From Minisyncoccota bacterium (GTDB lineage: Bacteria > Patescibacteriota > Minisyncoccia > Phycocordibacterales > UBA9973), in assembly GCA_041674285.1 (NCBI GenBank), contig JBAYVZ010000001.1, positions 85,732 to 149,731 of the forward strand: 64,000 nucleotides of DNA. Reading direction: 5' to 3'. The notes under the pieces are model-generated. The model saw only the letters and a program-made list of their open reading frames with translations. It was not told the DNA's origin and did no database searches. Numbering within the stretch: the first letter of the stretch is position 1; the number at the start of each line of letters is the position of its first letter. The position numbers were made by a program, and so were the translations under genes. Below are positions 16,525 through 40,403 of this stretch, in pieces.

Positions 16525-16541
16525 TTCCTATTAAATAAAAA

Positions 16542-16571
16542 AATATCTTTCAAATGAAAGATATTTTTTTA
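16542..16571 (+). terminator. rho-independent terminator after engB
   Basis: AAATATCTTTCA-AA-TGAAAGATATTT hairpin followed by a T-run. Confidence 0.75.
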
Positions 16572-16598
16572 TTTAATAGTTATCCACAGTTTTTTAGT

Positions 16599-18211: not shown

Positions 18212-18251
18212 GTTTATTTTGAATTTTTAAAAAAATGATATAATATCACTC

Positions 18252-18379
18252 ATGAGTCCCGTTAGAAGTCATACATGTTATTTTTGACTACGGGGTTTAT
18301 TTTAAAAAAGTATACATATTCGATATTATTAGTTAAATTATGTACGATAATCTAAAGATTATCTACTTCTAACGGGATG
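18252..18379 (+). promoter_or_regulatory. structured leader element copy 1 (uORF MSPVRSHTCYF + 12-bp long-range stem CCCGTTAGAAGT/ACTTCTAACGGG ending at the ppi start codon)
   Basis: Extended -10 TGATATAAT ends 7 nt before uORF ATG 18252; 5' arm 18258-18269, 3' arm 18365-18376, main ATG 18377. Confidence 0.6.
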
Positions 18380-19045
18380 AGTAATAAAATAATTATAGGT
18401 ATAGTTATTGTATTAGTGGTTTTGGGTGTTGGTTTTTCTATGTTTAAAAAGAGTGCTTCGAATAATGATTTGAATTCTGGTTCAACATTTTCAAATACAC
18501 AAGTGACAGAGGAAAAGCAGGCCCCAGAAGAGGCTGATATAAAATTAGTAGATAATAAAGATAAAAAATTTATGAAAGCAGTAATGGAGACAAACAAGGG
18601 TACTATCGAGATCGAATTTAGTACGGCTACACCAAAGACCGTAGAGAATTTTATTAAATTAGCAAAAGAAGGTTTTTATGATGGAGTAAAGTTTCACCGC
18701 GTGATAAAGGGATTCATGGTTCAAGGTGGCGATCCGCTGACAAAGGATGACTCACAGGCAGCCATGTGGGGCACAGGAGGTCCAGGATACAAATTTGCTG
18801 ATGAGATCACATCTACAAACAAGAATGATGTAGGTACGATATCTATGGCAAACTCTGGTCCAAATACAAATGGTAGTCAATTCTTTATCAATGTAAATGC
18901 AAACAATTTCCTAGATACAAAGCACACAGTATTTGGAAAAGTTGTAAAAGGTATGGACGTAGTGACTGCTATCGAGAATACAAAGACAGGAGCAGGTGAT
19001 AGACCAGTGGAAGCAGTAGTGATAAAAGGTATCACACTAGAATAA
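18377..19045 (+). CDS. membrane-anchored cyclophilin-type peptidyl-prolyl cis-trans isomerase
   Basis: N-terminal TM IIIGIVIVLVVLGVGF; cyclophilin motifs HRVIKGFMVQGGDP, FFIN. Confidence 0.9.
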   Translation: MSNKIIIGIVIVLVVLGVGFSMFKKSASNNDLNSGSTFSNTQVTEEKQAPEEADIKLVDNKDKKFMKAVMETNKGTIEIEFSTATPKTVENFIKLAKEGFYDGVKFHRVIKGFMVQGGDPLTKDDSQAAMWGTGGPGYKFADEITSTNKNDVGTISMANSGPNTNGSQFFINVNANNFLDTKHTVFGKVVKGMDVVTAIENTKTGAGDRPVEAVVIKGITLE

Positions 19046-19057
19046 AATAGTTAATAT

Positions 19058-19093
19058 AAAATCTCCCCTAAGCCTTGCCTAGGGGAGATTTTA
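19058..19093. terminator. bidirectional terminator hairpin ATCTCCCCTA/TAGGGGAGAT
   Basis: 10-bp stem with 9-nt loop flanked by AAA/TTT between convergent genes. Confidence 0.7.
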
Positions 19094-19098
19094 TATTG

Positions 19099-19260
19099 TT
19101 ATCTTTTGTGTTCGCGCCAATTATAATTGTCGTCTTCCTCTTCTTTGTCTTTCTTGTCGAGTATCATAGGTGTACCGCAAGCCTGGCATTCATCACCTAG
19201 GACTCTTCGCCCGCATCTCATACAAGTCGGATCATTCTTTGCTTCTTCTTCGTCTTCCAT
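19099..19260 (-). CDS. small acidic zinc-ribbon protein (53 aa), not in ORF track
   Basis: Minus-strand translation MEDEEEAKNDPTCMRCGRRVLGDECQACGTPMILDKKDKEEEDDNYNWREHKR* with CxxC...CxxC. Confidence 0.35.
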   Translation of the reverse strand: MEDEEEAKNDPTCMRCGRRVLGDECQACGTPMILDKKDKEEEDDNYNWREHKR

Positions 19261-19316
19261 ATTTTTTATTTAAATTTTGTCGCGTATTTATTTTTACGTG
19301 ACACCTTAACTTTTAA

Positions 19317-19955
19317 TTATTCTTTCCACTTTGGAATAAAGAATCCAAATGTGTGGTATAAGATTTTTGTTGATCTGCTGGAAATATTAAAGAATACTCC
19401 GATTGTAAATATTGCTAGTGCTACGGTAGTATTCAATGGTGCTACTGCCATGGCCACGAGTGCAGATACGATAGGGAACATGATACGGGCCCGGGCATGT
19501 CGGTGCTCCTTTTTTGTAACGTGACTATTCTCTATATTATGTGAATTCTTTGCGTATGTCCTCATCCATAGTGTAGTTAAGGCCAATAGTACGATGTGTA
19601 TAGCGAATATGTCGATGACCAGTACAGAGTGGCTGTATAGGCCTAGTAGGTGAGATGTGAATGGTAGTAGGGCAACGATAAATAGGAATACGGCATTTAT
19701 ATTTATGAACCTCGTGTCTACATTCTGCGCAAATACAGATGTGATAAAGTGATGACTCCGCCAGTAAGAGAATAGTACTGTGAATGCTAGTAGGTATGAT
19801 AGTAGGGGATTTGTCAGTGTCAGTAGTGATCGAGCGATCTCTGGATCTGTAGACAATACATTTAAATCTGCTGGTAATTTAATCTCTAGGACTAATAAAG
19901 TCATGACGATAGCAAATATACCGTCGGCTAATTGCTCTAATCTTTGTTGTTTCAT
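19317..19955 (-). CDS. TMEM175/DUF1211 family membrane protein (putative K+ channel)
   Basis: RLEQLADGIFAIVMTLLVLEI matches the DUF1211 signature (RLEAFSDGVFAI..TLLVLE); multiple TM helices; start chosen at MKQQR with TATAAT 6 nt upstream on the minus strand. Confidence 0.7.
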   Translation of the reverse strand: MKQQRLEQLADGIFAIVMTLLVLEIKLPADLNVLSTDPEIARSLLTLTNPLLSYLLAFTVLFSYWRSHHFITSVFAQNVDTRFININAVFLFIVALLPFTSHLLGLYSHSVLVIDIFAIHIVLLALTTLWMRTYAKNSHNIENSHVTKKEHRHARARIMFPIVSALVAMAVAPLNTTVALAIFTIGVFFNISSRSTKILYHTFGFFIPKWKE

Positions 19956-20050
19956 TTTTTTATTATAACATATCTCGTATATTGGTATATTTGACAAATT
20001 CTATTTTTTATATATAATATTTAAAACTTTGTAATCAACAATATCTAACT

Positions 20051-21118
20051 ATGGGAGCAACTAATCCGCATGAGCAGCAAAAGATTTTGAGACATGAAGA
20101 AGAATTAAAGAAAAAAACTATTTCCAACCAACTAAAACAGGCTGGCAATTTTTTTACCAATCATTTTTCTGTATTATCCCCCAAATTTAGTTTGGCTGGG
20201 CAGTACGAAGAAAAACTGGATCTTTGTTTTCCAAATCATGTTCCACCAAATCTAACTCTTCTAATCAAAAGTGAAATCTTGCAACAAGGTAAATTTATCA
20301 TCAATCATTATGAAGAGAAAAATACCTTTCGCATTACGATTCCAGAAGATCATCTTTCTACATTTAAAGGTAAAAAATTTAATTTCAATCAGCCTAAATT
20401 CAAGCTAGACACAACTGTCACAATTGAAAAAGCTGAAGAAGTAAAAACTGAATTACCTTTAAATGAAGAGTTAAACAATCCTACGTCTCAAGCCGAGGCA
20501 ACAATTTCAAATCAAAACACAAATCAAAACACAAATCAAACAACAAACAACACAAACCAAGACAACGACATGGCAAAAAATGATTTAATTGAAGCTCGCA
20601 AGGGCATCCTAGTTTTATTTAAGGAAAAAGGAATTACCACAAAGAACTATTGGAAGATTGAGCCTGCATCAGATGGAATTTCATTAGTGATTAATTGTAA
20701 GTCAACTGAAGATGCCGAAAACATCAATAAGTTGCTTGTTGAAGCTAATTACTCTTCAAAGCGTAAAAAAGGCAAGATGACTGTATGGAGTGATGTTTAT
20801 GCTGGTAAGGTACCACCGAAGAAAAGAACATCAAAGAAAACTGCTGCCAAAAAAGTTACCAAGAAAGTTGCAGTAAAAAAAGCTAAAAAAACCGCAGGAA
20901 AAGTATCAGTTAAAAAATCTGGATACACGAGCGACAATGTTTCAGCTCAATTGAGGATGATTGCAGACCAGCTTGAAAAACAAAAATTCAGTAATCCTGA
21001 AGCCTTGTTTACAAGATTGGTGGGTGACGGCGAGCTTATTGTACGTACAAAAAACAAAAAGGGGAGTGAAGTGCTGACAAATATTAGCAAAGAAGCATTC
21101 CTCGCCTGTTTTAAATAG
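20051..21118 (+). CDS. hypothetical protein with N/Q/T-rich repeat and Lys-rich histone-H1-like segment
   Basis: NQNTNQNTNQTTNNTNQDND repeat (DNA microsatellite 20506-20560) and KKRTSKKTAAKKVTKKVAVKKAKKTAGKVSVKK. Confidence 0.5.
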   Translation: MGATNPHEQQKILRHEEELKKKTISNQLKQAGNFFTNHFSVLSPKFSLAGQYEEKLDLCFPNHVPPNLTLLIKSEILQQGKFIINHYEEKNTFRITIPEDHLSTFKGKKFNFNQPKFKLDTTVTIEKAEEVKTELPLNEELNNPTSQAEATISNQNTNQNTNQTTNNTNQDNDMAKNDLIEARKGILVLFKEKGITTKNYWKIEPASDGISLVINCKSTEDAENINKLLVEANYSSKRKKGKMTVWSDVYAGKVPPKKRTSKKTAAKKVTKKVAVKKAKKTAGKVSVKKSGYTSDNVSAQLRMIADQLEKQKFSNPEALFTRLVGDGELIVRTKNKKGSEVLTNISKEAFLACFK

Positions 21119-21140
21119 GCAAAAGAAAAAACAAAGAGAG

Positions 21141-21169
21141 CAGGCCGTACAAAATACGGCCTGTTTTTT
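21141..21169 (+). terminator. rho-independent terminator
   Basis: CAGGCCGTA-CAAAA-TACGGCCTG + TTTTTT. Confidence 0.8.
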
Positions 21170-21218
21170 ATTTGACAAAAGTTGTATTTATAGGTATTGT
21201 AAAGAAAAAATATAAAAC

Positions 21219-21977
21219 ATGAAAAATAAAAAAGTACTGATTACAGGAGCGACCTCTGGTTTGGGGAAGCTTTTAGCAAGAGAGCTCGCGACTAAAGAGT
21301 ATTCTTTGATTATTACAGGCAGAGATTCTAATGAATTAAAGTCTTTAGTGGAAGAATTAAATGAATATACTCAAGTTGTGGCATATCCTGCCGATTTATT
21401 ACAGGCTCACCATTTATATATGCTTGCCTCTATTTATTGTGAAGATGTTTCTGTTGTTATTAATTGCGCTGCGGATTTTGGCCCAGTAAAGAATTTATTG
21501 GATGTATCAGCCAAAGAGATTATGGATGCCTTTAAGGTGAATGTTATGGCTCCAATTTCATTAGTTCAACACGCACTGCCATATATGCTGAAGAGTGGAT
21601 ATGGCCGGATTATTAACATCGGATCAACTGGTGGTTTGACTGGGTATCCATTACGTACGCCTTATTGTTTAAGTAAAAGTGCTCTGGTGGCTTTTACAAA
21701 AACATTGAATGGGGAAATTCTTTCCGGTGAATACGGAGACAAGGATGTAAATGTAAAAGCTTTTTGTATTTGTCCTGGTCCTTTTGAGGGTAAAAGATTG
21801 GAAACTCAGATCCGTGAGAGAGCCAAGTACAAAAAAGTCTCACCAAAAAAAATTCGTGAAAAATACGAATCAATCCAAGGGGGGATTATTGACCCTAATA
21901 AAATCGTGAGTATGGTTATTGCTACAATTGATCCTAGTGTCACCTGGCACGACCACCACGATGTAATCACATTTTAA
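21219..21977 (+). CDS. short-chain dehydrogenase/reductase (SDR) family oxidoreductase
   Basis: Cofactor-binding TGATSGLGK; catalytic S...YxxxK (YCLSK). Confidence 0.85.
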   Translation: MKNKKVLITGATSGLGKLLARELATKEYSLIITGRDSNELKSLVEELNEYTQVVAYPADLLQAHHLYMLASIYCEDVSVVINCAADFGPVKNLLDVSAKEIMDAFKVNVMAPISLVQHALPYMLKSGYGRIINIGSTGGLTGYPLRTPYCLSKSALVAFTKTLNGEILSGEYGDKDVNVKAFCICPGPFEGKRLETQIRERAKYKKVSPKKIREKYESIQGGIIDPNKIVSMVIATIDPSVTWHDHHDVITF

Positions 21978-21987
21978 AAAAAAGACA

Positions 21988-22027
21988 ACTCACAGAAATG
22001 ACAAAAAGCTCATTCTGTGAGTTTTTT
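21988..22027 (+). terminator. rho-independent terminator
   Basis: ACTCACAGAA...TTCTGTGAGT 10-bp stem followed by TTTTTGTTTT. Confidence 0.75.
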
Positions 22028-22162
22028 GTTTTACATTTGACATTTTTATTAAAAAATGCTATTCTATAGAAGTTGAAATACTCCTTTGTGCGTTAGTGTT
22101 TCAATCCCAATTTGCAACATAGTTTTGCAAACATTAGTATTGAAGCACTGAAAATTATATAT

Positions 22163-23608
22163 ATGGCTTATAAACCAAATTCTGGAAGAACTCGGAGTTC
22201 TTCCTCTGATAGCGTAGGTGGCGATAGTCGCCCATCGCTCCGATCAAGTGGTAGTCGTGGTGGATCTTCTCATGGAGGCCCGTCTCGATCATCACATAGT
22301 AATAGTAGTAGTCCTGCACGTGCAGCCCGTCCTTCACATGGAGGTCCAGCTCGCTCATCAGCACCTTATTCAGGTGGTGGTGGATCCCGTGGTGGCCGTG
22401 GCAATTTTTCTGGAAACAGAAAGGGCCGTGGTGGCTCAGGTGGTGGAGGCGGATCACGTGGTGGTTCATCTCGTGCCGGTGGCCGTGGCAAGGGTAATTT
22501 CGAGAGGATAGATTTCTCACGATTTATCAACAAAGCTACAATCACAGAAAAAGAGGAGATTTACTTACCGACTCATACATTCTCTGATTTTAAAGTAGAT
22601 GAATCTTTAAAGAGAGCTATCGCAAATAAAAATTACATATATCCGAGTCCTATTCAGGACAAGGCTATTCCTCATGCTCTAGAGGGTCGCGATATCGTAG
22701 GTATTGCGAATACTGGTACAGGTAAAACTGCAGCATTCCTAATCCCACTTATCAACAAGATATTGAATAACAAAAATGAAAAGGTGATAATCCTTGCTCC
22801 TACACGAGAGCTCGCAATTCAGATTGAAAAAGAATTGTTTGAATTCGTAAAGGGTATGAGTATCTTCTCTGTAGTATGCGTAGGAGGCGCACCGATATAT
22901 CCGCAAATCAAGACATTACGAAGACGTTGCGACTTTATCATCGGTACACCCGGACGTATCATGGACCTAGTAGATCGAAAAGAAATAAACCTCTCGACTG
23001 TGAACAATATAGTTCTCGATGAGGCTGATCGTATGCTAGACATGGGATTCGTAGATGATATGACAAAGATATTGCGTGCTATGCCCGAGCAGAAGCAAGC
23101 CTTCCTCTTCTCAGCGACTCTTCCAAAAGAAGTAGAAAAGCTAGTAGAGAGATTCACAAAGGATCCAGTGCGTGTGATGGTAAAGACTCGCGATACATCA
23201 AAGAACGTAGAGCAAGATATCGTCCGCATATCACGTGGTACAGAAAAGATGGATGTCCTAGAAGATCTCCTTTCTACAGCAGAATTCGACAAAGTTATAA
23301 TCTTTGCAGAGATGAAGCACACAGTAGAAAAGATTTCAGTGGAGTTGATAAAGCGCGGTTTCCGTGCAGGATCAATCCACGGCGACAAACGTCACAACGA
23401 GAGACAGAGAACACTGACACAATTTAAAGATGGAACTCTTAGTATTCTCGTAGCGACAGACGTCGCAGCTCGAGGACTAGATATCCCAAATGTATCTCAC
23501 GTGATCAACTATGAAGTACCTCAGACTTATGATACCTATGTTCACCGTATCGGCCGTACAGGCCGTGCCAGTGCAAAGGGTACAGCTCTGACATTCGTAG
23601 CAGGTTAA
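22163..23608 (+). CDS. DEAD-box ATP-dependent RNA helicase with N-terminal Ser/Arg/Gly (RGG)-rich extension
   Basis: Q-motif, GTGKTAAF, DEAD, SAT, HRIGRTGR; ~120-aa N-terminal RS/RGG low-complexity region; start set at ATG 22163 (TATATAT immediately upstream). Confidence 0.9.
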   Translation: MAYKPNSGRTRSSSSDSVGGDSRPSLRSSGSRGGSSHGGPSRSSHSNSSSPARAARPSHGGPARSSAPYSGGGGSRGGRGNFSGNRKGRGGSGGGGGSRGGSSRAGGRGKGNFERIDFSRFINKATITEKEEIYLPTHTFSDFKVDESLKRAIANKNYIYPSPIQDKAIPHALEGRDIVGIANTGTGKTAAFLIPLINKILNNKNEKVIILAPTRELAIQIEKELFEFVKGMSIFSVVCVGGAPIYPQIKTLRRRCDFIIGTPGRIMDLVDRKEINLSTVNNIVLDEADRMLDMGFVDDMTKILRAMPEQKQAFLFSATLPKEVEKLVERFTKDPVRVMVKTRDTSKNVEQDIVRISRGTEKMDVLEDLLSTAEFDKVIIFAEMKHTVEKISVELIKRGFRAGSIHGDKRHNERQRTLTQFKDGTLSILVATDVAARGLDIPNVSHVINYEVPQTYDTYVHRIGRTGRASAKGTALTFVAG

Positions 23609-23651
23609 AATTAAATAACCCTAGCAAGACCCGTTCTTGCTTAAAAACAAA

Positions 23652-23694
23652 AAAACTTACAAGCTTACGCTATCGCGCAAAGTTGTAAGTTTTT
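23652..23694. repeat. palindromic intergenic hairpin repeat, copy 1 (AAACTTACAAGCTTACGCTATCGCGCAAAGTTGTAAGTTT)
   Basis: Near-identical to copies at 27587, 28198, 40300; flanked by A-run/T-run (bidirectional-terminator-like). Confidence 0.85.
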
Positions 23695-23737
23695 TTGTTT
23701 GCACTCATTAATTTTTTATTTTATAATTTATTCATAA

Positions 23738-26700
23738 TGAAAAACATATTGCATTTCGCAATAGTGTTTGTATTCATAACTATTTTTAATATAGGAATAT
23801 TTCCTAGTTTTGCTTTTGCAGATACTGTCGTAGTAGGAGATATAAATGAAGATACTGTGTGGAGTTACGGAGACGGACCTTATATCCTGCAAGGTAATGT
23901 GTATGTGGATAGTGGAGTAAATTTAATTATCGAGAGCGGTACGATTGTAAAATTTGAGTTAGGATCTAGCCTCATTATCCAAGGCAATGTAGATATGCGT
24001 GGGTCTGAGGGTGATGAGATTTATTTTACTTCTATTTTAGATGATAGTATCGGTGGAGATACAAATTTTGATGAGGACGCCACCTCTCCTAGTCTTGGTG
24101 ATTGGAGGTTTATATTATTTGATTCTGGGTCCGTTTCTGGCATTTTAAATAATGTAATTTCACGGTACTCAGAGCAGGGCCTCGTTGTTTTTGATGCTTA
24201 TCTGAGTGTAGATGGTTTTACGTCAGATCAGGATATATATTTTTTAAATTCCAACGGAAGTCATTTATCCAGGATAAATATACCCAGTATGTCATTTTTT
24301 GATCATAGTAGCGCCTCCATCTCCGACAGTACCATCTCTGGTCCAGACAATACACCTATCTTGGTCCTTTATGAGGGGAATACTGTAAATATATTAAATA
24401 CTACGATATCTTGTATTTCTTTTTGCGGGAATGTAGTTAGTGTTTATAATTCATCAGTTTTGAATATAGAATCATCTGGTATATCTAGCGATTCCGGTGG
24501 TGTTTATGTTTTTGATTCTACTTTAAATGTCACAGATTCAGTTATTGATAATAGGAATAATGGGATATCTATATATGATTCATCTTTGTCTATATCAGAT
24601 TCTACTATCAAGAATTCTCAAAATTTTGGTATCGGTGTATATAATTTTTCTTTACAAAATATAGAGATTACAAATAATGAGATAAAAAATAATGGCATAG
24701 GGATAGCTTCATATGGAGAAGCGTTTTCAGTTCATGAAAATAGTATCCATGGGAATATTGTTGGTGTATCCAATGAAGCTATTTATATGGGGGACCTAAT
24801 TATGGACTCAAATTGGTGGGGGAGCAAAACGGGCCCATATCATGACACTCTGAATATCTACGGATTGGGTGATAGTGCCACTGACGGAGTATCCTACTAT
24901 CCTTGGCTACCTTATGACCCACTCAGTAGCGAGATGTCCAACGTGCTATTTATTCCTGGTTTTCAAGGTAGCAGATTGTATAAACAAAAAACATTGCCAA
25001 TCATTGGTAATGTGGAAGATAAACTCTGGGAGCCGAATACCAATAGTGATATCACAGATATGATGATGGATAATTTTGGCATTAGCCTAGATGAAAATAT
25101 CTATACTAGAGATATTGTAGATAAAAAGAGTGCTCTATTTTTTACTAGCGATATCATCTATGAATCTTTTATGAATGATATGGAAGCTCTAGTTAGTTCA
25201 AATACTATGGCGGATTGGGCGGCGACTCCTTATGACTGGAGGTATGACCCTATGTATGTAGTAGAACATGGTAGCGTGGATATAAATGGAAATATTTTTT
25301 ATGAAAATGAATTATTTGGATCCGAAGATTCATATATAGTAAAACAGGTAGAGAGCCTGATTGGTACATCAAAAAGTGGGAGGATCACACTAGTAGCTCA
25401 TTCAAATGGAGGCCTGGTTTTAAAAGCTCTAATGGTAAAGCTGGAGCAAATGAAAGCTGATGGTCTGAATGATTATGTGGATTATATAGATAAAGTTATC
25501 ATGGTCGCTACGCCACAGGTCGGTACACCCAAAGCTGTAGCTTCTATCCTGCATGGCTATGACCAGGAATTGTATTCCGGTGTGATTATGAAGCAATCGG
25601 TAGCTCGCAATTTTGCGATTAGGTTACCTGGGGCTTATGGATTGCTCCCGACTTCAAAATATTTTTATAACGTAGTGGATTCGCCAGTTGTCTTTGATCA
25701 GAGTTTAAATAAGATAAATAATTTTTATAAGATTTTTGGAGAAAAAATATCTAATTATGAAGATTTTGTAGATTTCTTATTAGCAAAAAAGAAAGACCGT
25801 ACGACTCCAGCTGTCTCCATGCTCGAAACACCAGCGATATTATTCCCAGGGATTTTTAATGATTCGGTAGATATTCACGAACAGCTTGATAATTATACTT
25901 TCCCAAGTAAAACAAAAGTCTACCAGCTCGCAGGTTGGGGCTTGCCGACATTGAAGGCTGTGCGATATTTCTCTCGAGCTGACTGCATACCTATCTCTAT
26001 TTTTAGCAAAAAATGCAAGATAGAAAATAATCTAGACGTAGAGCCTGTATTTACTGATGATGGGGACGAGACCGTAGTAACGCCTAGTGCTAATTATATT
26101 TCAGGCAATAATTATTATTTAAATTTATATAAATATAATAAAGATATGGGTTATGAGAATGAAGAAGTTTTTGATCACGCTCGTATACTTGACATTCTTT
26201 ATACAAGATCATGGATTATAAATATTTTAAGAAATAATTCTGTATTACCAGATTATGTGACTAAGACAAAACCTCCAAGTAATCAAAATTTAGTTATGTA
26301 TATACATACAACACCAGGTATGGACAAGAACGTATCGATTACAGACAAGGATGGCAACAATATGGGTATCAGGCTAGGTGTACCGTCAGACCCAGAAACT
26401 ACAGATTTTATACCGTATATCCAAGAGATTCCCGGAGGGTTTTATTCTATGATGGGGAGGAATCATTATGTATATCTGAGCTATTCAGGATCCGATAGTT
26501 ATAGGGTGAATATCACCCCAGCCGAGAATTCGGGTGGGGATACGAGCTCTGGTAGTGTCACTATCCGCCAAGATGTAGTCATTGGTGATACGATAGAGAG
26601 CTCCGTGACTGTGCCTAGCATCCCTGTATCTCCTGATACTATTATTTCCACGGACATAGGTCCAGATGGGTCTATAGACGATGTGGAGGTGGACAATGAA

Positions 26701-27144
26701 GGTGATGGCAATGTGGACTATATAGTGCCATCTATCCCCACAGAGGATCCACAGTCCCCAGTACAAGATGATGACAATATGAACTCCGAGATTATTCCAG
26801 ATCTAGAGATTTCAAAATCTTATGGATCTAATGCTGTTGTCCCCGATGAGAGAGGTGTCGTCGTGATAAGGGAAGGTATTGAAGTTAGATTAAATAAGAC
26901 AGATACTCAGATAGAAGGCGATCCAGTTTTGATACCTAATACTAAAATAGAAATTATAGATTCCGATATAGGTAATAAAGAGGTTGCGTCTGTGTTTGAT
27001 GAATACATCTATTCTGGGTCCAATCTGTCTGCATCTGTCCTGGAGTCTGAGATAGAAATCCCTTGGTTAAAAATTTTAAATACAATTCTGATTGCTATTA
27101 TTATATCTCTTGTATTGTATAAATTTATGTATAAGGTAAAATAA
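23738..27144 (+). CDS. large cell-surface protein: signal peptide, right-handed beta-helix repeats, alpha/beta-hydrolase (lipase/esterase-like GxSxG) domain, C-terminal TM anchor
   Basis: Signal peptide MKNILHFAIVFVFITIFNIGIFPSFAFA; NosD/pectate-lyase-like repeats (NNGISIYDSSLSISDSTIKNSQNFGIGVYNF); LVAHSNGG nucleophile elbow; C-terminal TM ILNTILIAIIISLVLY; start set at ATG 23738. Confidence 0.75.
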
Positions 27145-27148
27145 AAAT

Positions 27149-27589
27149 ATGAATTGGCAAAAAATTACAATTTGGACTTTAATTCTATCTGTTATTATTT
27201 ATCTGCTTTTTTATTACATTGCTAGTCATACAGATAAATTTTGTTATGAAGATCACTGGGACTGTTATTTAAAATTAAGATTTGCGATATCTTTTTCCTT
27301 TATAAATCTTTTCGAGTATATAATTCCAATCTTACTAATTGTTGCGTCTTTGCCAAGTCGCTATCAAAGAAAAATGTATATAAGTTTTATTTTTGTTTCT
27401 GTATTGGTTTTTATTTTTGTGTTTATTTTGTTGCCATATGAGTGTACTGGTTATATGTGCTTTGATAAGGCTAGTGGAGCCAAGTTTGCCCGAAATCTAT
27501 ACCCCCTAGTCCTAATCCCAATACTTGTGATCAATTTCTTCCGCTTCCGCAAACAAGACAAAAAAGCTTCAATTATTTTAAGCAAATAA
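27149..27589 (+). CDS. hypothetical polytopic membrane protein
   Basis: Four predicted hydrophobic helices; no motif. Confidence 0.45.
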   Translation: MNWQKITIWTLILSVIIYLLFYYIASHTDKFCYEDHWDCYLKLRFAISFSFINLFEYIIPILLIVASLPSRYQRKMYISFIFVSVLVFIFVFILLPYECTGYMCFDKASGAKFARNLYPLVLIPILVINFFRFRKQDKKASIILSK

Positions 27590-27628
27590 AACTTACAAAC
27601 TTACGCTATCGCGCAAAGTTGTAAGTTT
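27587..27628. repeat. palindromic intergenic hairpin repeat, copy 2
   Basis: AAAACTTACAAACTTACGCTATCGCGCAAAGTTGTAAGTTT; identical to copy 4; overlaps the stop of the upstream ORF. Confidence 0.85.
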
Positions 27629-27658
27629 CAGTGGTGTATTATTAATAATAATTAACCT

Positions 27659-28156
27659 ATGAGCATTGAAACAGAAATATTGTCCTACTTGGCAAATCAA
27701 AAAAGAGAAAAGCCACTAAAATACAAAGGTCTTAGGGTTGGCCTGTTCGGCTTGCCAGATTTTGAACATTATAAATACCAGACAATGGCTGCAAGATTAT
27801 CCGGTCTCAAAACAAAGGGGTATATAGATGAGAAAAATGGAGCATACTTTATTACAAAAAAGGGTAGAGATTTTCTTTTAAAAAGTAAATCTATCCTTCA
27901 AAAATTTTCGACAAATAAAACGAGTACAGATCCGAAGGATCTTTTGATTGTATATGACATACCCGAGGGTAATAAGAAGCAGAGAGATTGGTTTCGTCGG
28001 CAGTTGGTATCTATGCATTTTGTGATGATACAGAGGAGTGTCTGGGTAGGTCCAGCTCCATTATCCGATGAATTTCTTGCATATTTAAAATCTTTAAAAC
28101 TTAATGATAATTTTAAAACATTCAGATTAGCAAAGGGGTATGATACTCGTAAGTAA
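27659..28156 (+). CDS. winged-helix + Cas2-like (VapD/Cas2-fold) domain protein, orphan
   Basis: C-terminal half LLIVYDIPEGNKKQRDWFRRQLVSMHFVMIQRSVWVG...FKTFRL parallels the Cas2 N-terminal core (LVLV.YDI..D..RRR....L...G.R.Q.SVF). N-terminal ~75 aa is wHTH-like; no CRISPR array nearby. Confidence 0.5.
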   Translation: MSIETEILSYLANQKREKPLKYKGLRVGLFGLPDFEHYKYQTMAARLSGLKTKGYIDEKNGAYFITKKGRDFLLKSKSILQKFSTNKTSTDPKDLLIVYDIPEGNKKQRDWFRRQLVSMHFVMIQRSVWVGPAPLSDEFLAYLKSLKLNDNFKTFRLAKGYDTRK

Positions 28157-28197
28157 GAGTATTATGAATAAATAATTTAAAATTTAGTATAAAATAT

Positions 28198-28242
28198 TAA
28201 ACTTACAACTTTGCGCTATCGCGCAAAGTTGTAAGTTTTTTG
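28198..28242. repeat. palindromic intergenic hairpin repeat, copy 3 (perfect palindrome AACTTACAACTTTGCGC-TAT-CGCGCAAAGTTGTAAGTT)
   Basis: Perfect 17-bp arms; followed by TTTTTTGTTTTTTT. Confidence 0.85.
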
Positions 28243-28320
28243 TTTTTTTGAGTATATTTGTGCTATTTACAAAAAACTTCATATATTGTAGTCTAAAAGA
28301 AAACCCTTAATTTTATATTC

Positions 28321-28800
28321 ATGAAAACTAAAAAAATTAGTATCTTCGCACAAATTACCATTATTGCGGTCATTCTCGTGTTGTTGTTTCTATTCAAAGA
28401 TTATTTGATAGATTCAGTTTTCCTTTCACTTTTTGCTGTATTTTCAGCTTTACTCCTAGTGTCTATCTTTAATTTTATTGATCATATTTATGTAAAAAAA
28501 GGTGAAATGACCAAGGAAAAAATATTGGAAGTTGTCAGTAAGTCTCGAGCTAAGTTTCAAAAATTTGGCTATCTTCCTTTGGAATTTGAAGAAAAATATC
28601 ATAGTACGTCGGTGCCCGATAAGGATCAGGATATAAGGCATTGTATCTGGATGCTCGATCAAATTGAAAAGCAAATCAATGATAATGATTTTGAGATTGG
28701 AAGGATAAACAGATGGCTCGGTTTTGTACAGCATTGTTTATGGGCATATGGATTCTATTCACTCGAAGAGATGAGAGATCAAAATCGACCAACAAAATAA
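28321..28800 (+). CDS. hypothetical membrane protein
   Basis: Two N-terminal TM helices; no motif. Confidence 0.45.
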   Translation: MKTKKISIFAQITIIAVILVLLFLFKDYLIDSVFLSLFAVFSALLLVSIFNFIDHIYVKKGEMTKEKILEVVSKSRAKFQKFGYLPLEFEEKYHSTSVPDKDQDIRHCIWMLDQIEKQINDNDFEIGRINRWLGFVQHCLWAYGFYSLEEMRDQNRPTK

Positions 28801-28869
28801 TTGACTAAACATCAAAAAATCCCTAGAACTTTCGTTCGAGGGATTTTTTAATGCGTCTATGTATATAGA

Positions 28870-29997
28870 TTATGCAGTTGCTTTTTTGTCGTCTAGGAAT
28901 ACTAGAGTCATTCTCTGGTCTTTTGGTTCAAATAGTGTCACTTGGAAATTGTATGTCTTACCCATCTCTAGTGTCTTCTTTAGTTTTTCCTCAGATCCAA
29001 ATCCTGAATTGTGTACTAGTCCTGCTACTCCTTGCTTGATAGATACCAATGCGCCGTGTTTGTTGAACTTGATTACTACTCCAGATACGATATCACCCTT
29101 CTTCAATGTAGTCTCGAATTCCTTCCATGGGTTTTCTTTTAGAGCTTTGATTGAAAGAGAGATTTTACCTTCTTTGATTTCGATTATCTTTGCCTTGATC
29201 TTGTCGCCGATCTTGAATAGGGCACGTGGATCTTCTACTAGACCCCAATCAAGCTCAGAGATGTGTACTAGACCTTCTAGACCCTCTTCTACCTTTAGGA
29301 ATACTCCGAAGTCTACGATACCAGCTACTGTACAATCGATAGCATCACCTACAGTGTATTTGCCTACTACTGCCTGGCGTTCTTCTGGATTGTTGTCTTT
29401 TTCAGAGAAGATTAATTTACCTTCTTTTGGAAGAGCTGAGATCATGATCACATTGATGCGCTTGCCTACGAGCTTCTTCAATTCCTTTAGAATCTTGTCC
29501 TTGTCAGAATCTTCAACCCTCGGATAGTGCTCACTTGAAAGCTGTGATGCTGGTAGGAATCCTGCGATACCCTGCCATTCAAGGATTAGTCCACCCTTGT
29601 TTGCCTCCTTTACTGTGATTTCAAGTAATGTCTTTGACTTGATTGCCTTGTCAGCTTCACTCCAGATTAGAGCTTGTTTTGCTTCCTTTAGAGAAAGTTC
29701 GATGTAACCATCGTCATTGCCTGCTGATACAACCTTTGCCTTTACTACGTCACCAATGTTTACTTTCTTGATGATGTCTTTTGCATTGATGAATTCACGT
29801 CCATATATGATACCTGTACCGTATGGTGCAAGGTCGATATATACAGATGATTTCATGATCATGATCACTGGACCCTCGACTAGAGTATCCACAACTGGTG
29901 GAAGTTCTGTCTTTTCAAGCATCTTGCCGACACTTGAGAGTTCAGCTTTAGCATGTTCTACAACACTGTCTAAAACTTCTTTTTCGTCTTTTTTCAT
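28870..29997 (-). CDS. rpsA: 30S ribosomal protein S1 (short, four S1 domains)
   Basis: Repeated S1/OB motifs (GDVVKAKVV, VGDAIDCTVAGIVDFGVFLKV, FKIGDKIKAKIIEI). Confidence 0.85.
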   Translation of the reverse strand: MKKDEKEVLDSVVEHAKAELSSVGKMLEKTELPPVVDTLVEGPVIMIMKSSVYIDLAPYGTGIIYGREFINAKDIIKKVNIGDVVKAKVVSAGNDDGYIELSLKEAKQALIWSEADKAIKSKTLLEITVKEANKGGLILEWQGIAGFLPASQLSSEHYPRVEDSDKDKILKELKKLVGKRINVIMISALPKEGKLIFSEKDNNPEERQAVVGKYTVGDAIDCTVAGIVDFGVFLKVEEGLEGLVHISELDWGLVEDPRALFKIGDKIKAKIIEIKEGKISLSIKALKENPWKEFETTLKKGDIVSGVVIKFNKHGALVSIKQGVAGLVHNSGFGSEEKLKKTLEMGKTYNFQVTLFEPKDQRMTLVFLDDKKATA

Positions 29998-30224
29998 AAT
30001 TTAAAAATTAAAAAACCGCCCGTTCCTGTGATTTACCAATGGTAAAAGGGAACAGCGGCACAATATATGGGTCTTTTTGATGCGGTTAAGTAAATTGCAC
30101 CATCAAGGGATATCCACATACTGGGCTAGTAATACGTAAAAGATACCATAAAATAAGGGCTTTTGCAAGCTTGACTAGTGTAGGCAATGGGTGGTATAAT
30201 ATACGAAAATTAAACCCGAAAAAA

Positions 30225-30716
30225 ATGAACAAAATTTTATTAGCTAAATCAAGGATGAATCATCCTCTTAGCTCTATTTGCACGTTGTCAAACGGAAAAC
30301 AGGTGGATGGTGAGAAATTTATTGTGGATTTGCCTGTGGAGTATCTCAGTATTGTGGATGAAAAACCTACAATGGTTATACCCATCAAGCAGCATTTTTT
30401 AAAGCTGAATGAGGCTGATCAGAAGAAAAAATTAGAATCATTTATCTTCCATTCAAATGAAAAATCTAAAAATTTTGATTTTGCGATCTTGGTATTGCCT
30501 ATGAGATCTCCGCGATCTCTTCATTTGATGGTTTCTAACTTTTGTTTAAAAAATGAATATGCATTTGCAGATTCATCAAATTCACAAGAGAAAAAAGAAT
30601 TATTAATTAGCTTACCTGTACCTAAAAACCCTGAGATCGATTTAGTGTCAATGTTCCATTTGGGAATTCACAATGAATCTGGTTATCAGAATCGTTTGGC
30701 TATTGCCAAAGTTTAA
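30225..30716 (+). CDS. hypothetical protein
   Basis: ORF from ATG 30225 (track ORF begins 30171); no motif. Confidence 0.4.
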   Translation: MNKILLAKSRMNHPLSSICTLSNGKQVDGEKFIVDLPVEYLSIVDEKPTMVIPIKQHFLKLNEADQKKKLESFIFHSNEKSKNFDFAILVLPMRSPRSLHLMVSNFCLKNEYAFADSSNSQEKKELLISLPVPKNPEIDLVSMFHLGIHNESGYQNRLAIAKV

Positions 30717-30794
30717 TCAAACTAAAGAAGTTCGACCTGTCAGATTTAATCTGGTGGGTCTTCTTTTTTTATATATATTTGATATAATACTCCT

Positions 30795-31421
30795 ATGATT
30801 ATCACATACCTCGGAAAGCAATTTTTTAAAATTCAGCAAGGCGATCTAGTCGTCGCATTTAACCCTATTAGTAAAGAATCAAAATGGGATGGTAAGATAT
30901 CTCGTTTTGGTTCAGATATAGCACTATCTACTACAAATCACCCAGATTACAATGGCTTTGACACTGTATCTCACGGAGACACTGTTCCTTTTTCTGTATC
31001 TGGTGCTGGTGACTATGAAATAAGGGGTATTTTTATAAAGGGTGTGGGTACCGAGGCTAGTATCGGTGGTAAAAAATATGTGAATACTATCTATTCTATG
31101 TCTATCGAAGGTATAACTCTTGGAATACTGGGTCCTGTGGCTAGTGGAGCTATGACATCTCCAGTAAAGGCAGAATTTGAATCTCCTGATATTCTTTTTG
31201 TTCCAATCGGAGGCGGAGATACGCTGGAGGTAGCCGAGGCATACAAAATGGCTCTCTCTATGGAGTCCAAGATTATAATTCCAATGGGCTATGACGAAAA
31301 ATCACTAAAGGCGTTCTTAAAAGAAGGAGGTCAGGAAAATACAAAGTCAATAGAAAAGCTAACCATCAAAGCAAAAGAGCTCGCTGGACGAGAGGGCGAG
31401 ATTGTCGTTCTGGATTATTAA
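30795..31421 (+). CDS. hypothetical protein, possibly degenerate metallo-beta-lactamase-fold (UPF0173-like)
   Basis: MIITYLGKQFFKIQQGDLVVAFNP resembles N-termini of MBL-fold hydrolases, but the HxHxDH motif is not intact (TTNHPDYNG). Confidence 0.35.
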   Translation: MIITYLGKQFFKIQQGDLVVAFNPISKESKWDGKISRFGSDIALSTTNHPDYNGFDTVSHGDTVPFSVSGAGDYEIRGIFIKGVGTEASIGGKKYVNTIYSMSIEGITLGILGPVASGAMTSPVKAEFESPDILFVPIGGGDTLEVAEAYKMALSMESKIIIPMGYDEKSLKAFLKEGGQENTKSIEKLTIKAKELAGREGEIVVLDY

Positions 31422-31435
31422 TATACAATAAGGAT

Positions 31436-31561
31436 ATGAATCCCGTTAGAGATGTGTTTGTTTTATTTTTAAAGTGGGATGAATATTAAATTAAGTCGTA
31501 TTTTTTTACTAAACATTAATAAGATACGGTAATGTAAACATTACCTATCTCTAACGGGATG
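31436..31561 (+). promoter_or_regulatory. structured leader element copy 2 (uORF MNPVRDVFVLFLKWDEY + stem CCCGTTAGAGAT/ATCTCTAACGGG ending at the start codon of the downstream membrane protein)
   Basis: uORF ATG 31436; 5' arm 31442-31453; 3' arm 31547-31558; main ATG 31559. Confidence 0.6.
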
Positions 31562-31891
31562 AAAGATTATATCTATAAATTGCGCTCAAAGCCAGAAGAA
31601 ATAAGGAAACAGTATATGTTTTTCTTTATTGCTATCTTTATGACTGTCGTAGGTGGAGTGTGGGTTTATAGTCTGACCAATACATTTTTTAAATCTTCTG
31701 CGAGTCCCGAGGTTGGTCTAAGTGAAGATGTTAAGCCATTTGCACTGTTCGCAAATACAATAAAGGATACTTATACAAATGTAAAAGCAAGCGCAGTTGA
31801 CCCATTCACAAAAGATAAAGAAGAGATAAAAGACGTGATTCCGGTTGAGAATCAGAAGATGATACCACTTACAGTAATAGATAACCAATAA
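31559..31891 (+). CDS. small N-terminally membrane-anchored protein
   Basis: [22 protein letters not shown]; precedes gyrA by 4 nt. Confidence 0.5.
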
Positions 31892-31895
31892 TACA

Positions 31896-34352
31896 ATGGC
31901 AAAAAAAGAAGAAAACAATGAAATAGTAAAAGAGCATGTAAACGTAGTCTCTGTAAATATTAGTCGTGAGATGAAAGACTCATTTATCGACTATGCCATG
32001 TCTGTGATCACAGATCGCGCTCTACCTGATGTGCGTGATGGATTAAAGCCAGTTCACCGTCGTATCCTATACGCTATGAATGAGATGGGATTGACCCATT
32101 CTTCTCGTTTTCGTAAGTCTGCTGCAGTAGTCGGAGACGTGCTCGGAAAGTACCACCCACACGGAGATGTGGCTGTTTATGATTCTATGGTGGGTATGGC
32201 TCAGGATTTCTCTTATCGTTATCCTCTGATATTCGGGCAGGGTAACTTTGGTTCTATCGACGGGGACAATGCAGCTGCTATGCGTTATACAGAGGCAAAA
32301 ATGGCAAAGATCTCATCAGTCCTTCTCCTTGATCTAGAAAAAGAAACAGTAGATTTTCGACCAAACTACGACCAGACTCGCAAGGAGCCTATCGTGCTAC
32401 CTACTGCTGTCCCATCACTATTGCTAAACGGTACTCTAGGTATCGCTGTGGGTATGGCTACAAATATCCCACCACACAATCTAGGTGAGGTAGTAGACGC
32501 TACAATCGAGCTAATTGATAATAAGGACGCAACTACGGAGGATCTGATGAAGCATATCAAGGGTCCAGACTTTCCAATCGGTGGTATCGTATACGGTCAG
32601 GCAGATATGCTACATGCATATTCTACTGGACGTGGTGGAGTAGTGACTCGTGGCGAGGCAGAGATAGTAGAGCAAAAGAGTGGCACATTTCAGATCATCA
32701 TCACATCTATCCCGTACCGTGTGAATAAATCAGCTCTTATTGAGGCTATAGCGGCCCTAGTGCAAGAGAAAAAGCTAGAAGGTATCAAAGGCCTACGTGA
32801 TGAATCAGCAAAAGATATCCGTATCGCTATTGATCTAAAATCAGGTGTTCACCCACAAAAAGTACTGAACTATATCTACAAGCATACACAGCTCGAGCAG
32901 TCTTTCAATTTTAACATCGTGGCCCTAGTAGATGGTGTACCTCAGACATTGTCACTCAAGAGTCTGCTCTCTGAATTCATAACTCACAGGCAGGTTGTGG
33001 TAAAGCGTCGCACAGAATACGACCTACGTAAGGCAAAAGAACGCGAGCATATATTGCTCGGCTTGAAAAAAGCTCTCGACCATATCGACAAAGTAATCTC
33101 TGTGATCCGTGCTTCAAAGGATACAGCTACAGCAAAGGTAAATTTGATGAAGGAATTCAAATTCTCTGATCTGCAGGCTACAGCTATTCTTGAGATGCGT
33201 CTGCAAAAGCTAGCAGGACTCGAGAGAAAGAATGTAGAATTGGAACTTGCAGAAAAGCAGGCACTTATCAAAGAGCTCGAGGCACTGCTCTCATCTCCAA
33301 AGAAAATGCTAAAAGTAATCGCTGATGAATTGATTGCTATCAAGGAAAAGTATGCAGACGAGCGCCGTACTCGTATCATCAAGGGTGGAGTAAAGGCTAT
33401 CAACGAAGAAGATCTTATCCCAGAAAAAGAATCTGTACTAGTATTCACAAAAGGTGGATATGTAAAGCGTACTGATCCAGGTGAATACCGTGCTCAAAAG
33501 CGTGGAGGTGTGGGGGTAGTCGATATCGAGACAAAGGATGAAGACTTTGTGACAATGCTCGTATCAGCAAATACACACAGTGACCTACTATTCTTTACAA
33601 ACCGTGGAAAGGCATACCAGATCAAGATGTATGACATACCAGAGGGCAAGCGTGCTACAAAGGGTAAGTCTGTCATGAACTTTATCTCACTCGATGATGG
33701 AGAGAAGGTGACTTCAATTTTACCGATAGACAAAGAGACAAAGAAGACAGTAGAGAGTCTGATGCTCGTAACAGCCCAAGGTGTAGCCAAGAAAGTGTCT
33801 GCAGAGGGATTCAAAGATGTGCGCCGTTCAGGGCTCATCGCTATCACTCTTGATAAAGGTGACGAGCTCGTATCTGTACTACCAATCACAAAGGGTGATA
33901 GTGTGATGCTCGCGACAGCCCAAGGTCAATCTATCCGATTCGAAGAAGATGATGTCCGCGAGATGGGACGTGCAGCAGCAGGTGTACGCGGTATCAAGCT
34001 AGGCAAGAATGACAGCGTCATCGGTGTGGACCGTGTAGCAAAGGGGGATAAAGAGAGCTCTCTTTTGATTCTCAGTGAGCACGGCCTCGGAAAGAAGACT
34101 GGTATCAAGGAATACAAAGTCCAAAAGCGTGGAGGATCTGGTATCAAGACTGCAAAAGTGACTACAAAGACTGGAAAGCTAATTGTGGCAAAGATAGTAG
34201 GTGATGAGAATGAAATCATCGCTGTCTCACAAAAAGGCCAAGTGATCCGCGTAGATTTGAAATCTATCCCTTCATCTGGACGCCAGACTCAAGGTGTGAC
34301 AATCATGAAGCTCCGCGCAGGCGATTCAATAGCATCTATTACTTGTTTGTAA
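31896..34352 (+). CDS. gyrA: DNA gyrase subunit A
   Basis: Catalytic-Tyr region [17 protein letters not shown]-terminal beta-pinwheel repeats. Confidence 0.95.
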
Positions 34353-34369
34353 AATTTAAATATAAAAAA

Positions 34370-34396
34370 GTCCGGAATTTACTTTCGGACTTTTTT
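34370..34396 (+). terminator. rho-independent terminator after gyrA
   Basis: GTCCGGAA...TTTCGGAC + TTTTTT. Confidence 0.65.
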
Positions 34397-34416
34397 ATAT
34401 GTGATATAATTAAAAC

Positions 34417-34950
34417 ATGTTTGCAAATCCACAAAGTAATGTAGCTCAATTTAATCTACGCGAGGGTATGCGTGTCGCTGATTTTGGTGCAGGGAGTGGT
34501 GGGTATGTACGTGCTATCTCTGATCGTGTCGGTCATACTGGCAAGGTCTATGCCATCGATGTACAGAACTCTCTATTCCTAAAACTAACAGAAGACGTAA
34601 AAAAATATCCACTCCAAAATGTAGAGTGTATTCTCGGTGATGTAGAGAAAAAGGGTGGGTCAAAACTCGCAGATAAATCCATGGATGCAATCATAGCTTC
34701 CAATGTATTATTCCAGATAGAGGATAAATTAGGCCTGATAGATGAGATTAAAAGAGTTTTAAAGCCAAAAGGGCGAGTACTGGTCATAGATTGGTCAGAT
34801 TCTTTTGGTGGTATGGGTCCAGCACCTATGTACGTAGTGCCCAAGATAAAAGCAGAACATCTATTTATCGATAGAGGTTTTAGAGTTATCGAAAATATAG
34901 GAGCGGGGAGTCATCATTATGGTATAATATTTATATATGAGTCCCGTTAG
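34417..34950 (+). CDS. class I SAM-dependent methyltransferase
   Basis: Motif I VADFGAGSGGY, motif post-I/II AIDV..., LKPKGRVLVIDW. Confidence 0.8.
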   Translation: MFANPQSNVAQFNLREGMRVADFGAGSGGYVRAISDRVGHTGKVYAIDVQNSLFLKLTEDVKKYPLQNVECILGDVEKKGGSKLADKSMDAIIASNVLFQIEDKLGLIDEIKRVLKPKGRVLVIDWSDSFGGMGPAPMYVVPKIKAEHLFIDRGFRVIENIGAGSHHYGIIFIYESR

Positions 34951-35066
34951 AAACCGCGATCGCAATTTAAATAAAAATATTATTATAAAAATTATGCAAT
35001 ATATAAAAATTAACAATCTAATTAATCAGAATCACGACTTGATCGCGATCTGTTTCTAACGGGATG
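34937..35066 (+). promoter_or_regulatory. structured leader element copy 3 (40-codon uORF MSPVRNRDRN... + 21-bp interrupted stem CCCGTTAGAAAC-CGCGATCGC / GCGATCGCG-AGAT-GTTTCTAACGGG)
   Basis: TATAAT 34923-34928 is 8 nt upstream of uORF ATG 34937; uORF stop TAA 35057-35059 lies inside the 3' arm; main ATG 35064. Confidence 0.6.
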
Positions 35067-40152: not shown

Positions 40153-40299
40153 CGCCTTCCTCCTGCCGAAAACAAAAATCCTTTTCTTTCGAAAGGGATT
40201 TTTAATTTTATAGACGTTTATTTGCTTATTAATAATATTTGTTGTTCCAGTTTTTTGTATAATTTTTGGGCCATAGATTTACATATGCTATTTAACTAT

Positions 40300-40344
40300 A
40301 AAACTTACAAACTTACGCTATCGCGCAAAGTTGTAAGTTTTTTT
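40300..40344. repeat. palindromic intergenic hairpin repeat, copy 4
   Basis: AAAACTTACAAACTTACGCTATCGCGCAAAGTTGTAAGTTTTTTTG; between convergent genes. Confidence 0.85.
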
Positions 40345-40403
40345 GTTTAATTAAAATGCGTTTAATTTGGTTTAATTAAGTAATATTTAATCTCTTTGTA
40401 GTA

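Follow-up and report, generated by a model that had tools for sequence, protein, structure and literature searches.

Miniature transposable elements at the start codons of Patescibacteria and other bacteria, with inferred translational coupling to the downstream gene

We report that a 64,000-nucleotide stretch of a Minisyncoccota genome (GCA_041674285.1, contig JBAYVZ010000001.1; the window, meaning the whole stretch that was analysed) carries four copies of a non-autonomous transposable element of the miniature inverted-repeat type (MITE), about 105-135 bp long, each lying directly before a gene. The family to which they belong is apparently widespread and undescribed. Insertion leaves the original ATG on the upstream side, where it opens an upstream open reading frame (uORF) that runs into the element, and the gene has a start codon again at the other end. 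Across the family, this uORF stays open up to the gene start about four times more often than expected. The best explanation overall, and one that we consider likely, is a MITE that sits on start codons and keeps the gene behind it expressed through an inferred translational coupling.

A first-pass annotation had described three structured leaders in the window, at 18252-18379, 31436-31561 and 34937-35066. Checked in the sequence, their positions and anatomy hold: each reads ATGA(G/A)T, then CCCGTTAGA with three variable bases, about 100 nt of AT-rich DNA, the three-base complement, TCTAACGGG and the ATG of a long open reading frame (ORF). The uORFs of 11, 17 and 40 codons are also present; in copies 1 and 3 a TATAAT box precedes the uORF ATG by 7-8 nt, and the third uORF stops at a TAA that belongs to the 3' repeat, 4 nt ahead of the point (35064) where the gene for a solute-binding protein (SBP) starts. 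The arms pair as described, although the helix is 13 bp long rather than 12, reaching one base further outward. The set of three was incomplete: a sequence-agnostic scan for 12-nt inverted repeats with at most one mismatch, 60-160 nt apart and flanked by a 4-bp direct repeat, found four elements in the window and none across five shuffled windows. The fourth (49128-49246, minus strand) precedes priA, and its arm core has diverged to CACGTACGA, with three changed positions that match on both arms. CCCGTTAGA itself occurs six times in the window against 0.15 expected, and none of 100 shuffles held six or more.

To describe the family we used two copy sets from public collections, scanned with arm gaps of up to 600 bp: set 1 from an arm-pair scan with one genome per species (at least 120 loci, 135 copies), and an independent set 2 from a scan of metagenomes (at least 120 loci, 127 copies). 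All family counts refer to copies among the matches listed. The two scans together cover at least 240 loci, mostly in Patescibacteria but also in Omnitrophota, Planctomycetota, Deltaproteobacteria and others. Within the searched range the elements measure 103-133 bp, and the window holds four copies in 64 kb.

The terminal inverted repeat is 13 bp long and reads (T/C)CCCGTTAGA followed by R-R-Y. The base pair outside the 9-mer, T..A or C..G, is complementary in 130 of 135 copies of set 1 and 122 of 127 of set 2 (252/262 in all), and 73-76 of 79 copies keep complementarity at repeat positions 11-13. Exact 4-bp direct repeats flank the element in a single register in 94/135 and 68/127 copies (162/262), while shifted registers, counted in set 1 only, gave 0-1. 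More than 20 different tetranucleotides are duplicated (TGAA, TGAG, TGGA, TAAA, CATG and others), usually of the form T-R-R-R. A terminal inverted repeat together with a target-site duplication is the signature of transposition. The first-pass annotation had entertained a MITE with 5-bp ATGAR duplications; it was right about the MITE, but the duplication is 4 bp (TGAG, TGAA or TGTA in the window) and the A of the ATG belongs to the element.

Empty sites in relatives confirm insertion at two loci. The gene behind copy 1 encodes a cyclophilin-type peptidyl-prolyl isomerase (PPIase), and its locus is empty in six syntenic loci (four orthologues, 67-81% identical), where TTGAAT-N17-TATAAT-N7-ATG stands straight before the gene. 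Compared with an empty relative, the window reads ATGAGT, the element and ATGAGT again after a shared 16 nt; these final 16 nt of the PPIase promoter are identical to those of the closest empty-site relative (locus L125), with a few substitutions further upstream. At the SBP locus, five loci are empty and carry a single ATGAGT (two orthologues, 94% and 82% identical) and two are filled. The filled site in a relative that is 76% identical holds an element matching ours at 113 of 121 positions (93%), against 73-80% for the flanking coding DNA. Since this relative is filled while the 94% and 82% relatives are empty, and since the element is better conserved than its flanks, the SBP site points to re-use of the site or precise excision, not to simple vertical descent. 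The insertion also altered the upstream gene: the methyltransferase ORF (34417-34950, plus strand) has 177 aa here and 175 aa at empty sites, where it ends 8 nt into the SBP gene. The SBP promoter sits within the methyltransferase coding region. In the only other assembly that exact-protein look-ups gave, two Logan contigs of the same strain (L122 and L124) both start exactly 25 nt upstream of the gene ATG, inside the element; at k = 31 such ends are expected if other copies in that sample share the last 26 nt plus ATGA(G/A), and they are uninformative on polymorphism.

The interior of the element, described in the first-pass annotation as non-conserved, falls into sub-families across genomes: copies are 71-78% identical to their best non-orthologous match against a background of 53%, in addition to the 93% at the orthologous filled site. 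ORFs inside the element are limited to the uORFs, which are unconserved. Tandem insertions occur at locus L028 (5899-6278, three successive elements with ATGAAT flanks, of which the second has the variant repeat CCCGTAGTAGA) and at L032 (about 7674-7800), which shows that the regenerated target is used repeatedly. In a Staskawiczbacteria genome (L117, 544-1375), 576 bp are enclosed by a pair of copies that are 100% identical and both have GTAAAC flanks; a recent duplication could account for this arrangement, as could a composite transposon. We also observed miniature forms of 29-31 bp that consist of the two repeats and a loop of 3-11 nt (L071 3406-3434, L087 6015-6041, L056 3322-3350, L017 5795-5823) and intermediates of about 75 bp (L076 4316-4391, L084 2170-2243). 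These small forms may have arisen by excision or deletion, or may be the seeds from which new repeat variants grow.

The family is strongly associated with gene starts. More than half of the copies (79/135 and 60/127, together 139/262) lie against an ATG or GTG from which an ORF of 60 codons or more runs away from the element. In only four of these 139 does the frame stay open for at least 60 codons upstream of the duplicated ATG, which makes them genuine gene starts rather than internal methionine codons. With element polarity set by a subterminal motif, which in a third of copies takes in the hairpin treated below, the orientation relative to the gene is nearly invariant (47 versus 5 in set 1, 34 versus 1 in set 2, 81 versus 6 in total). 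The flanks on both sides give the logo A-T-G-R-R, which defines the target as A|TGRR, and the rebuilt start codon consists of the terminal A (or G) of the element plus the duplicated TG, giving ATG (or GTG) before an intact gene. Copies whose terminal pair is C..G have ATG as the upstream codon and GTG as the gene codon, showing that the first base of the rebuilt start is supplied by the element. The habit is most evident in Patescibacteria, where 61 of 87 copies stand at start codons. The premise of the first-pass annotation that a MITE would be found at random positions was a false dichotomy: this one is a MITE, and it sits on start codons.

This preference exceeds what the availability of targets predicts. 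In the window, where coding density is 86%, ATGRR occurs at 39 gene starts, at 63 intergenic positions and 542 times within genes, and availability with purging of in-gene insertions would place about 38% of copies at starts. Set 1 has 79 copies at starts, and only about 8 of its 56 non-start copies have an ATG/GTG-type flank (the list was read by eye), which puts about 90% at starts. Two narrower targets were considered and rejected: the G-TAAA-C class found in other phyla does not target stop codons (5/56), and leaderless promoters are not enriched at insertion sites (15/63 versus 82/441).

Judged from their N-terminal sequences, and with no domain search, the genes behind the element appear to include those for the ribosomal proteins L11, L17 and L35, IF-3, ClpP, TopA, AtpD and aminoacyl-tRNA synthetases. 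This tabulation of downstream gene classes, which the first-pass annotation had proposed, found them to be functionally unrelated. The lack of a Shine-Dalgarno (SD) sequence before the main ORFs was seen correctly, but it is not specific to the element: an SD-like motif precedes only 4 of 65 crudely called genes of the window genome. In about a third of the window genes a TANWAT box stands 5-9 nt ahead of the ATG, and leaderless mRNAs appear to be common in this genome.

The second line of evidence concerns what lies between the two start codons. The original ATG opens a uORF beginning M-x-P-V-R (ATG-RRY-CCC-GTT-AGA), with codons 3-5 provided by the 5' repeat. This repeat is open in the frame of the ATG, and the other two frames hit TGA or TAG at once, ending overlapping upstream genes. 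Among the 63 gene-associated copies of set 1 with an upstream ATG, 24 have an interior free of stops in the uORF frame; each of the other two frames is free in 7, and shuffling yields 6.5 +/- 2.4 (maximum 15 in 2000). We noticed this pattern post hoc and then repeated the identical test on set 2, where 23/42 are open versus 4 and 3 in the other frames and 4.9 +/- 2.0 in shuffles. Both sets together have 47 open uORF frames in 105, with about 11 expected. The excess survives clustering: with one representative for each of 33 clusters, 19.9 are open versus 3.7 and 3.7, and among singletons 16/26 versus 3 and 3.

The open uORFs also end at particular places. All 24 of set 1 stop either at -7 (the TAA in TCTAACGGG, 4 nt before the AUG) or at +1 (the TGA of an AUGA overlap). 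The distance from ATG to ATG falls into classes 0, 1 and 2 modulo 3 in 22, 51 and 32 copies (p = 0.002), so that the in-frame class is depleted, and only 2 of these 22 in-frame copies are open. The uORF peptides are unrelated beyond the part encoded by the repeat, so it is the openness that is conserved and not the product. Taken together, these frame statistics indicate that selection keeps the uORF open as far as the gene start, and suggest that its translation matters for the downstream gene. The idea in the first-pass annotation that uORF translation unmasks the main start thus survives in part: the uORF is selected to stay open, but its effect is a built-in property of the mobile element and not a gene-specific regulator.

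How could an insertion on the start codon be tolerated? The original ATG keeps its native initiation context, which in the window is a leaderless promoter with the TATAAT box 6-8 nt upstream. In our proposal, ribosomes would load there, translate through the element and melt the 13-bp stem in which the AUG of the gene is predicted to be buried, and would then restart at the gene by termination-reinitiation. Coupling of this kind needs an overlap or a very short distance (PMC10666635), and a spacing of about 20 nt almost abolishes re-initiation (PMC10666635, PMC6728339). The two junctions seen here, a 4-nt overlap or a gap of a few nucleotides, are the geometries at which termination-reinitiation works. 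The insertion would thereby be nearly neutral, even in essential genes of compact SD-less genomes. Copy 3 would represent the coupled type, and copies 1, 2 and 4 would presumably rely on partial opening of the stem by the uORF ribosome combined with the SD-independent internal initiation usual in this genome; alternatively, these three are mildly deleterious.

Several observations weigh against this account. Early uORF stops occur in 58 of the 105 gene-associated copies, including three of the four in the window (copies 1, 2 and 4, with 11, 17 and 13 codons), which means that coupling cannot be the sole route to gene expression. The case for re-initiation draws on sequence statistics and on work in E. 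coli and Haloferax, and would have to carry over to these hosts. Outside Patescibacteria only 8 of 35 copies are at start codons, and the excess at starts could partly reflect, besides active targeting, purifying selection in genomes where nearly every intergenic base is functional. Complementarity at positions 11-13 holds even though several variants coexist in one genome, and its cause is not accounted for. Nor does the account explain a subterminal hairpin, which lies at the gene-proximal end in 29 of 79 copies (8 have it distally, and shuffles give 4.4) and which has 21 different stems with compensating changes; whether a uORF is open showed no evident link to the class of hairpin. In about 0.8 Mb (the window and 133 loci; 127 later loci were not searched) we found neither a transposase nor a full-length element bearing these ends. 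In the same window and 133 loci, searches with arms paired at 300-5000 bp, with single arms and with relaxed arm sequences yielded only combinations of separate MITEs and the miniature forms. The transposase would be expected to act in trans.

A bolder version, which we hold tentatively as possible rather than probable, is a transposon specialised for start codons, one that actively recognises starts in SD-less and often leaderless genomes and whose repeats have been shaped into a portable translational-coupling device. If true, this specialisation would let the element settle even on genes that streamlined Patescibacteria cannot do without, and spread from phylum to phylum. The stem and the uORF may also have turned some copies into translation-dependent switches by co-option.

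The alternative that survives best, although we regard it as unlikely, is a MITE without any translational device, which would be found at starts because its target is ATGRR and other insertions are lethal, the gene being read by SD-independent initiation. The target motif does contain ATG, the high coding density leaves 39 start sites against 63 intergenic ones, SD-less internal initiation must be routine where so few genes have an SD-like motif, and the early stops in 58 copies are what such an element would show. Against it stand the roughly fourfold excess of open uORF frames over other frames or shuffles, replicated and robust to clustering, the confinement of open uORFs in set 1 to two junction stops, the depletion of in-frame lengths, and the occupancy of starts at about 90% in set 1 where availability predicts about 38%.

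We give a low probability to processing by RNase III, which would cut the paired repeats in the transcript and leave a near-leaderless mRNA beginning a few nucleotides before the AUG; it could operate alongside coupling. Beyond the 13-bp stem lies a second helix, formed by the coaxially stacked hairpin or by the extension in copy 3, which brings the total to about 20 bp with a 3' strand continuous to the AUG, and the genes at the window insertion sites were leaderless before insertion. However, if the uORF frame is selected, the leader must be translated at full length and not merely removed, and leaderless promoters are not enriched at insertion sites generally, as given above.

Equally hard to sustain, and in our view very improbable, is the interpretation of the first-pass annotation itself: a cis-regulatory RNA leader evolved by the host, in which the starts of genes for membrane-anchored proteins are hidden in a long-range stem until translation of the uORF exposes them. 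All four copies are predicted to fold with the arms paired and the gene AUG buried (z = -4.3 to -6.4), arm positions 11-13 covary, and the uORF frame is under selection. But the precise empty sites at two loci in close relatives and the target-site duplications speak for insertion, and the downstream genes are unrelated and include many essential cytoplasmic ones. The proposed link to membrane anchors dissolves on counting: 24 of 79 downstream proteins have one versus 203 of 762 controls (p = 0.51), and the fourth copy precedes PriA. The arm covariation, offered as evidence for RNA, is what the terminal inverted repeats of a transposon family show; complementarity is as high in copies away from genes, and in gene-sense orientation positions 11-13 have 7 G:U versus 5 A:C mismatches, showing no strand asymmetry in a comparison of low power. 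A search of Rfam with the window and 18 loci at gathering thresholds, and with copy 1 at E up to 10, returned only tRNAs, RNase P and noise.

Finally, an invertible segment flipped by a recombinase (also raised in the first-pass annotation) or an element with its own outward promoter is almost certainly wrong: inverted repeats do flank an AT-rich segment just upstream of genes, but polarity is fixed (81 versus 6), target duplications and empty sites point to insertion, promoter-like hexamers are as frequent in sense as in antisense (26 versus 28) with no fixed position, and the repeat takes up the 13 nt next to the AUG, leaving no room for a -10 box.

With the start-codon MITE as the preferred reading, we compared the element with known families. 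Integron attC sites were rejected, the order GTTAGA/TCTAAC being the reverse of that in attC, and REP/REPIN (RAYT) or IS200/IS605-type elements were rejected on the clear 4-bp duplication and terminal inverted repeat; a single-stranded intermediate is nevertheless conceivable, given the hairpin with compensating stem changes. The pattern was seen on only three viral contigs when a phage vector was considered. In the literature, the arm sequences matched only unrelated primers, and a search on MITEs in Patescibacteria, or the candidate phyla radiation (CPR), found nothing relevant.

Mycobacterial interspersed repetitive units (MIRUs), reportedly described by Supply et al. in 1997, often form tandem arrays that are used as variable-number tandem repeats. 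They resemble our element in inserting at start codons and carrying an ORF whose stop overlaps or abuts the gene start, and the working principle proposed here is the same. MIRUs are apparently mobile, and a 2025 review describes an internal ORF coupled at -4 nt after insertion at a start codon (PMC12548453); they have little effect on expression and show tetranucleotide direct repeats (PMC12548453, PMC3184786). They are 40-100 bp long, with G+C-rich internal inverted repeats and imperfect terminal repeats (PMC3184786). By contrast, the element described here has a sharp 13-bp terminal repeat, a second junction type (TAA, 4 nt, AUG) and a replicated frame-openness statistic, and its hosts are Patescibacteria and other groups rather than Actinomycetota. 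Compared with the descriptions of MIRUs, it works like one but is not filed as one.

Correia elements (CREE/NEMIS) of Neisseria duplicate TA and have an IHF site and repeats of 26 bp. Transcribed together with the gene beside them, they form long hairpins in the RNA and are processed by RNase III. They are MITEs of similar size (about 100-160 bp), with terminal inverted repeats, and are often found just 5' of genes, whose expression they can affect, and they carry functional promoters (PMC3184786). Our element differs in its 4-bp T-R-R-R duplication, its 13-bp repeat, the lack of an oriented promoter signal and its position exactly on the start codon. Rickettsia palindromic elements (about 100-150 bp) survive in gene-dense reduced genomes by being compatible with translation (PMC3184786). 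They are inserted in frame within coding sequences and become part of a protein, whereas the present element avoids in-frame read-through and is translated as a separate uORF.

For the transposase, piggyBac/IS1380-type enzymes are a tentative lead. The piggyBac end, TTAA|CCCTAGAAAGATAG, compares with TGAA|(T)CCCGTTAGAGATAG here, the termini starting with CCC. Like the present element, piggyBac has a 4-bp duplication starting with T and a 13-bp terminal repeat with an asymmetric subterminal repeat. It also excises precisely, which would fit the empty 94% relative and the filled 76% relative at the SBP locus. Its target is the palindromic TTAA, whereas the targets here are asymmetric (TGAA, TGAG, TGGA, TAAA).

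These findings describe an abundant MITE family across several phyla, including Patescibacteria/CPR, and provide a replicated statistical example of a mobile element that would keep a host gene expressed through its own uORF, a principle cited mainly for MIRUs. They also carry a warning for annotation, as such elements mimic conserved structured leaders and, in CPR genomes, displace start codons or double them. Sites that are filled or empty provide strain-level markers for organisms that are hard to culture; the cognate transposase, if found, could give a genetic tool for CPR bacteria; and the element may be viewed as a natural "bicistronic design" part for SD-independent expression.

Table 1. 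Coordinates of the four MITE copies in the window and of associated features.
Feature	Position	Strand	Remarks
MITE copy 1	18257-18377	+	121 bp including the terminal T..A pair; empty at six orthologous loci
Copy 1, terminal repeats	5' TCCCGTTAGAAGT 18257-18269; 3' ACTTCTAACGGGA 18365-18377	+	Final base is the A of the PPIase start codon
Copy 1, target duplication	18253-18256 (upstream); 18378-18381 (downstream)	+	TGAG
Copy 1, uORF	18252-18287	+	11 codons and stop; A18252 with TGAG is the original start codon, now the uORF start
Copy 1, subterminal hairpin	18346-18363	+	GATAATC-TAAA-GATTATC; abuts the gene-proximal repeat
PPIase native leaderless promoter	18222-18251	+	TATAAT ends 7 nt before the original ATG
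MITE copy 2	31441-31559	+	119 bp; terminal repeats TCCCGTTAGAGAT and ATCTCTAACGGGA; followed by a 110-aa membrane protein and gyrA
Copy 2, hairpin	31528-31545	+	GGTAATG-TAAA-CATTACC
Copy 2, target duplication	31437-31440; 31560-31563	+	TGAA
Copy 2, uORF	31436-31489	+	17 codons; TACAAT 6 nt upstream of the uORF ATG
MITE copy 3	34942-35064	+	123 bp; repeats TCCCGTTAGAAAC and GTTTCTAACGGGA
Copy 3, repeat extension			CGCGATCGC / GATCGCG, with a 4-nt bulge
Copy 3, target duplication	34938-34941; 35065-35068	+	TGAG
Copy 3, uORF	34937-35059	+	40 codons, open across the whole element; coupling-competent type
Copy 3, TAG in 5' repeat	34948-34950	+	Now ends the upstream methyltransferase ORF
MITE copy 4	49128-49246	-	Repeats TCACGTACGAAAT and ATTTCGTACGTGA; found by the sequence-agnostic scan, overlooked in the first-pass annotation
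Copy 4, hairpin and target duplication		-	GGAAATC-TAAA-GATTTCC; TGTA
Copy 4, uORF	49251-49210	-	13 codons; upstream ATG at 49251-49249; TAGGAT box 6 nt upstream of the original ATG
priA	47149-49128	-	ATG at 49128-49126; preceded by copy 4

Other features of the window were noted in passing. The gene that follows the SBP gene (36372-37346, plus strand) encodes a pilin domain of type IV secretion (PF18895), and the two genes stand together in all relatives examined. A second repeat family, at 23645-23700, 28191-28246 and 40290-40351, forms terminator-like hairpins with arms of about 26-29 nt (AAACTTACAA..TT.CGC / GCGCAAAGTTGTAAGTTTTTT) and a 4-nt loop. The longest perfect inverted repeat of the window is a 25-nt palindrome with a 2-nt loop at 16528-16579 (CTATTAAATAAAAAAATATCTTTCA / TGAAAGATATTTTTTTATTTAATAG).

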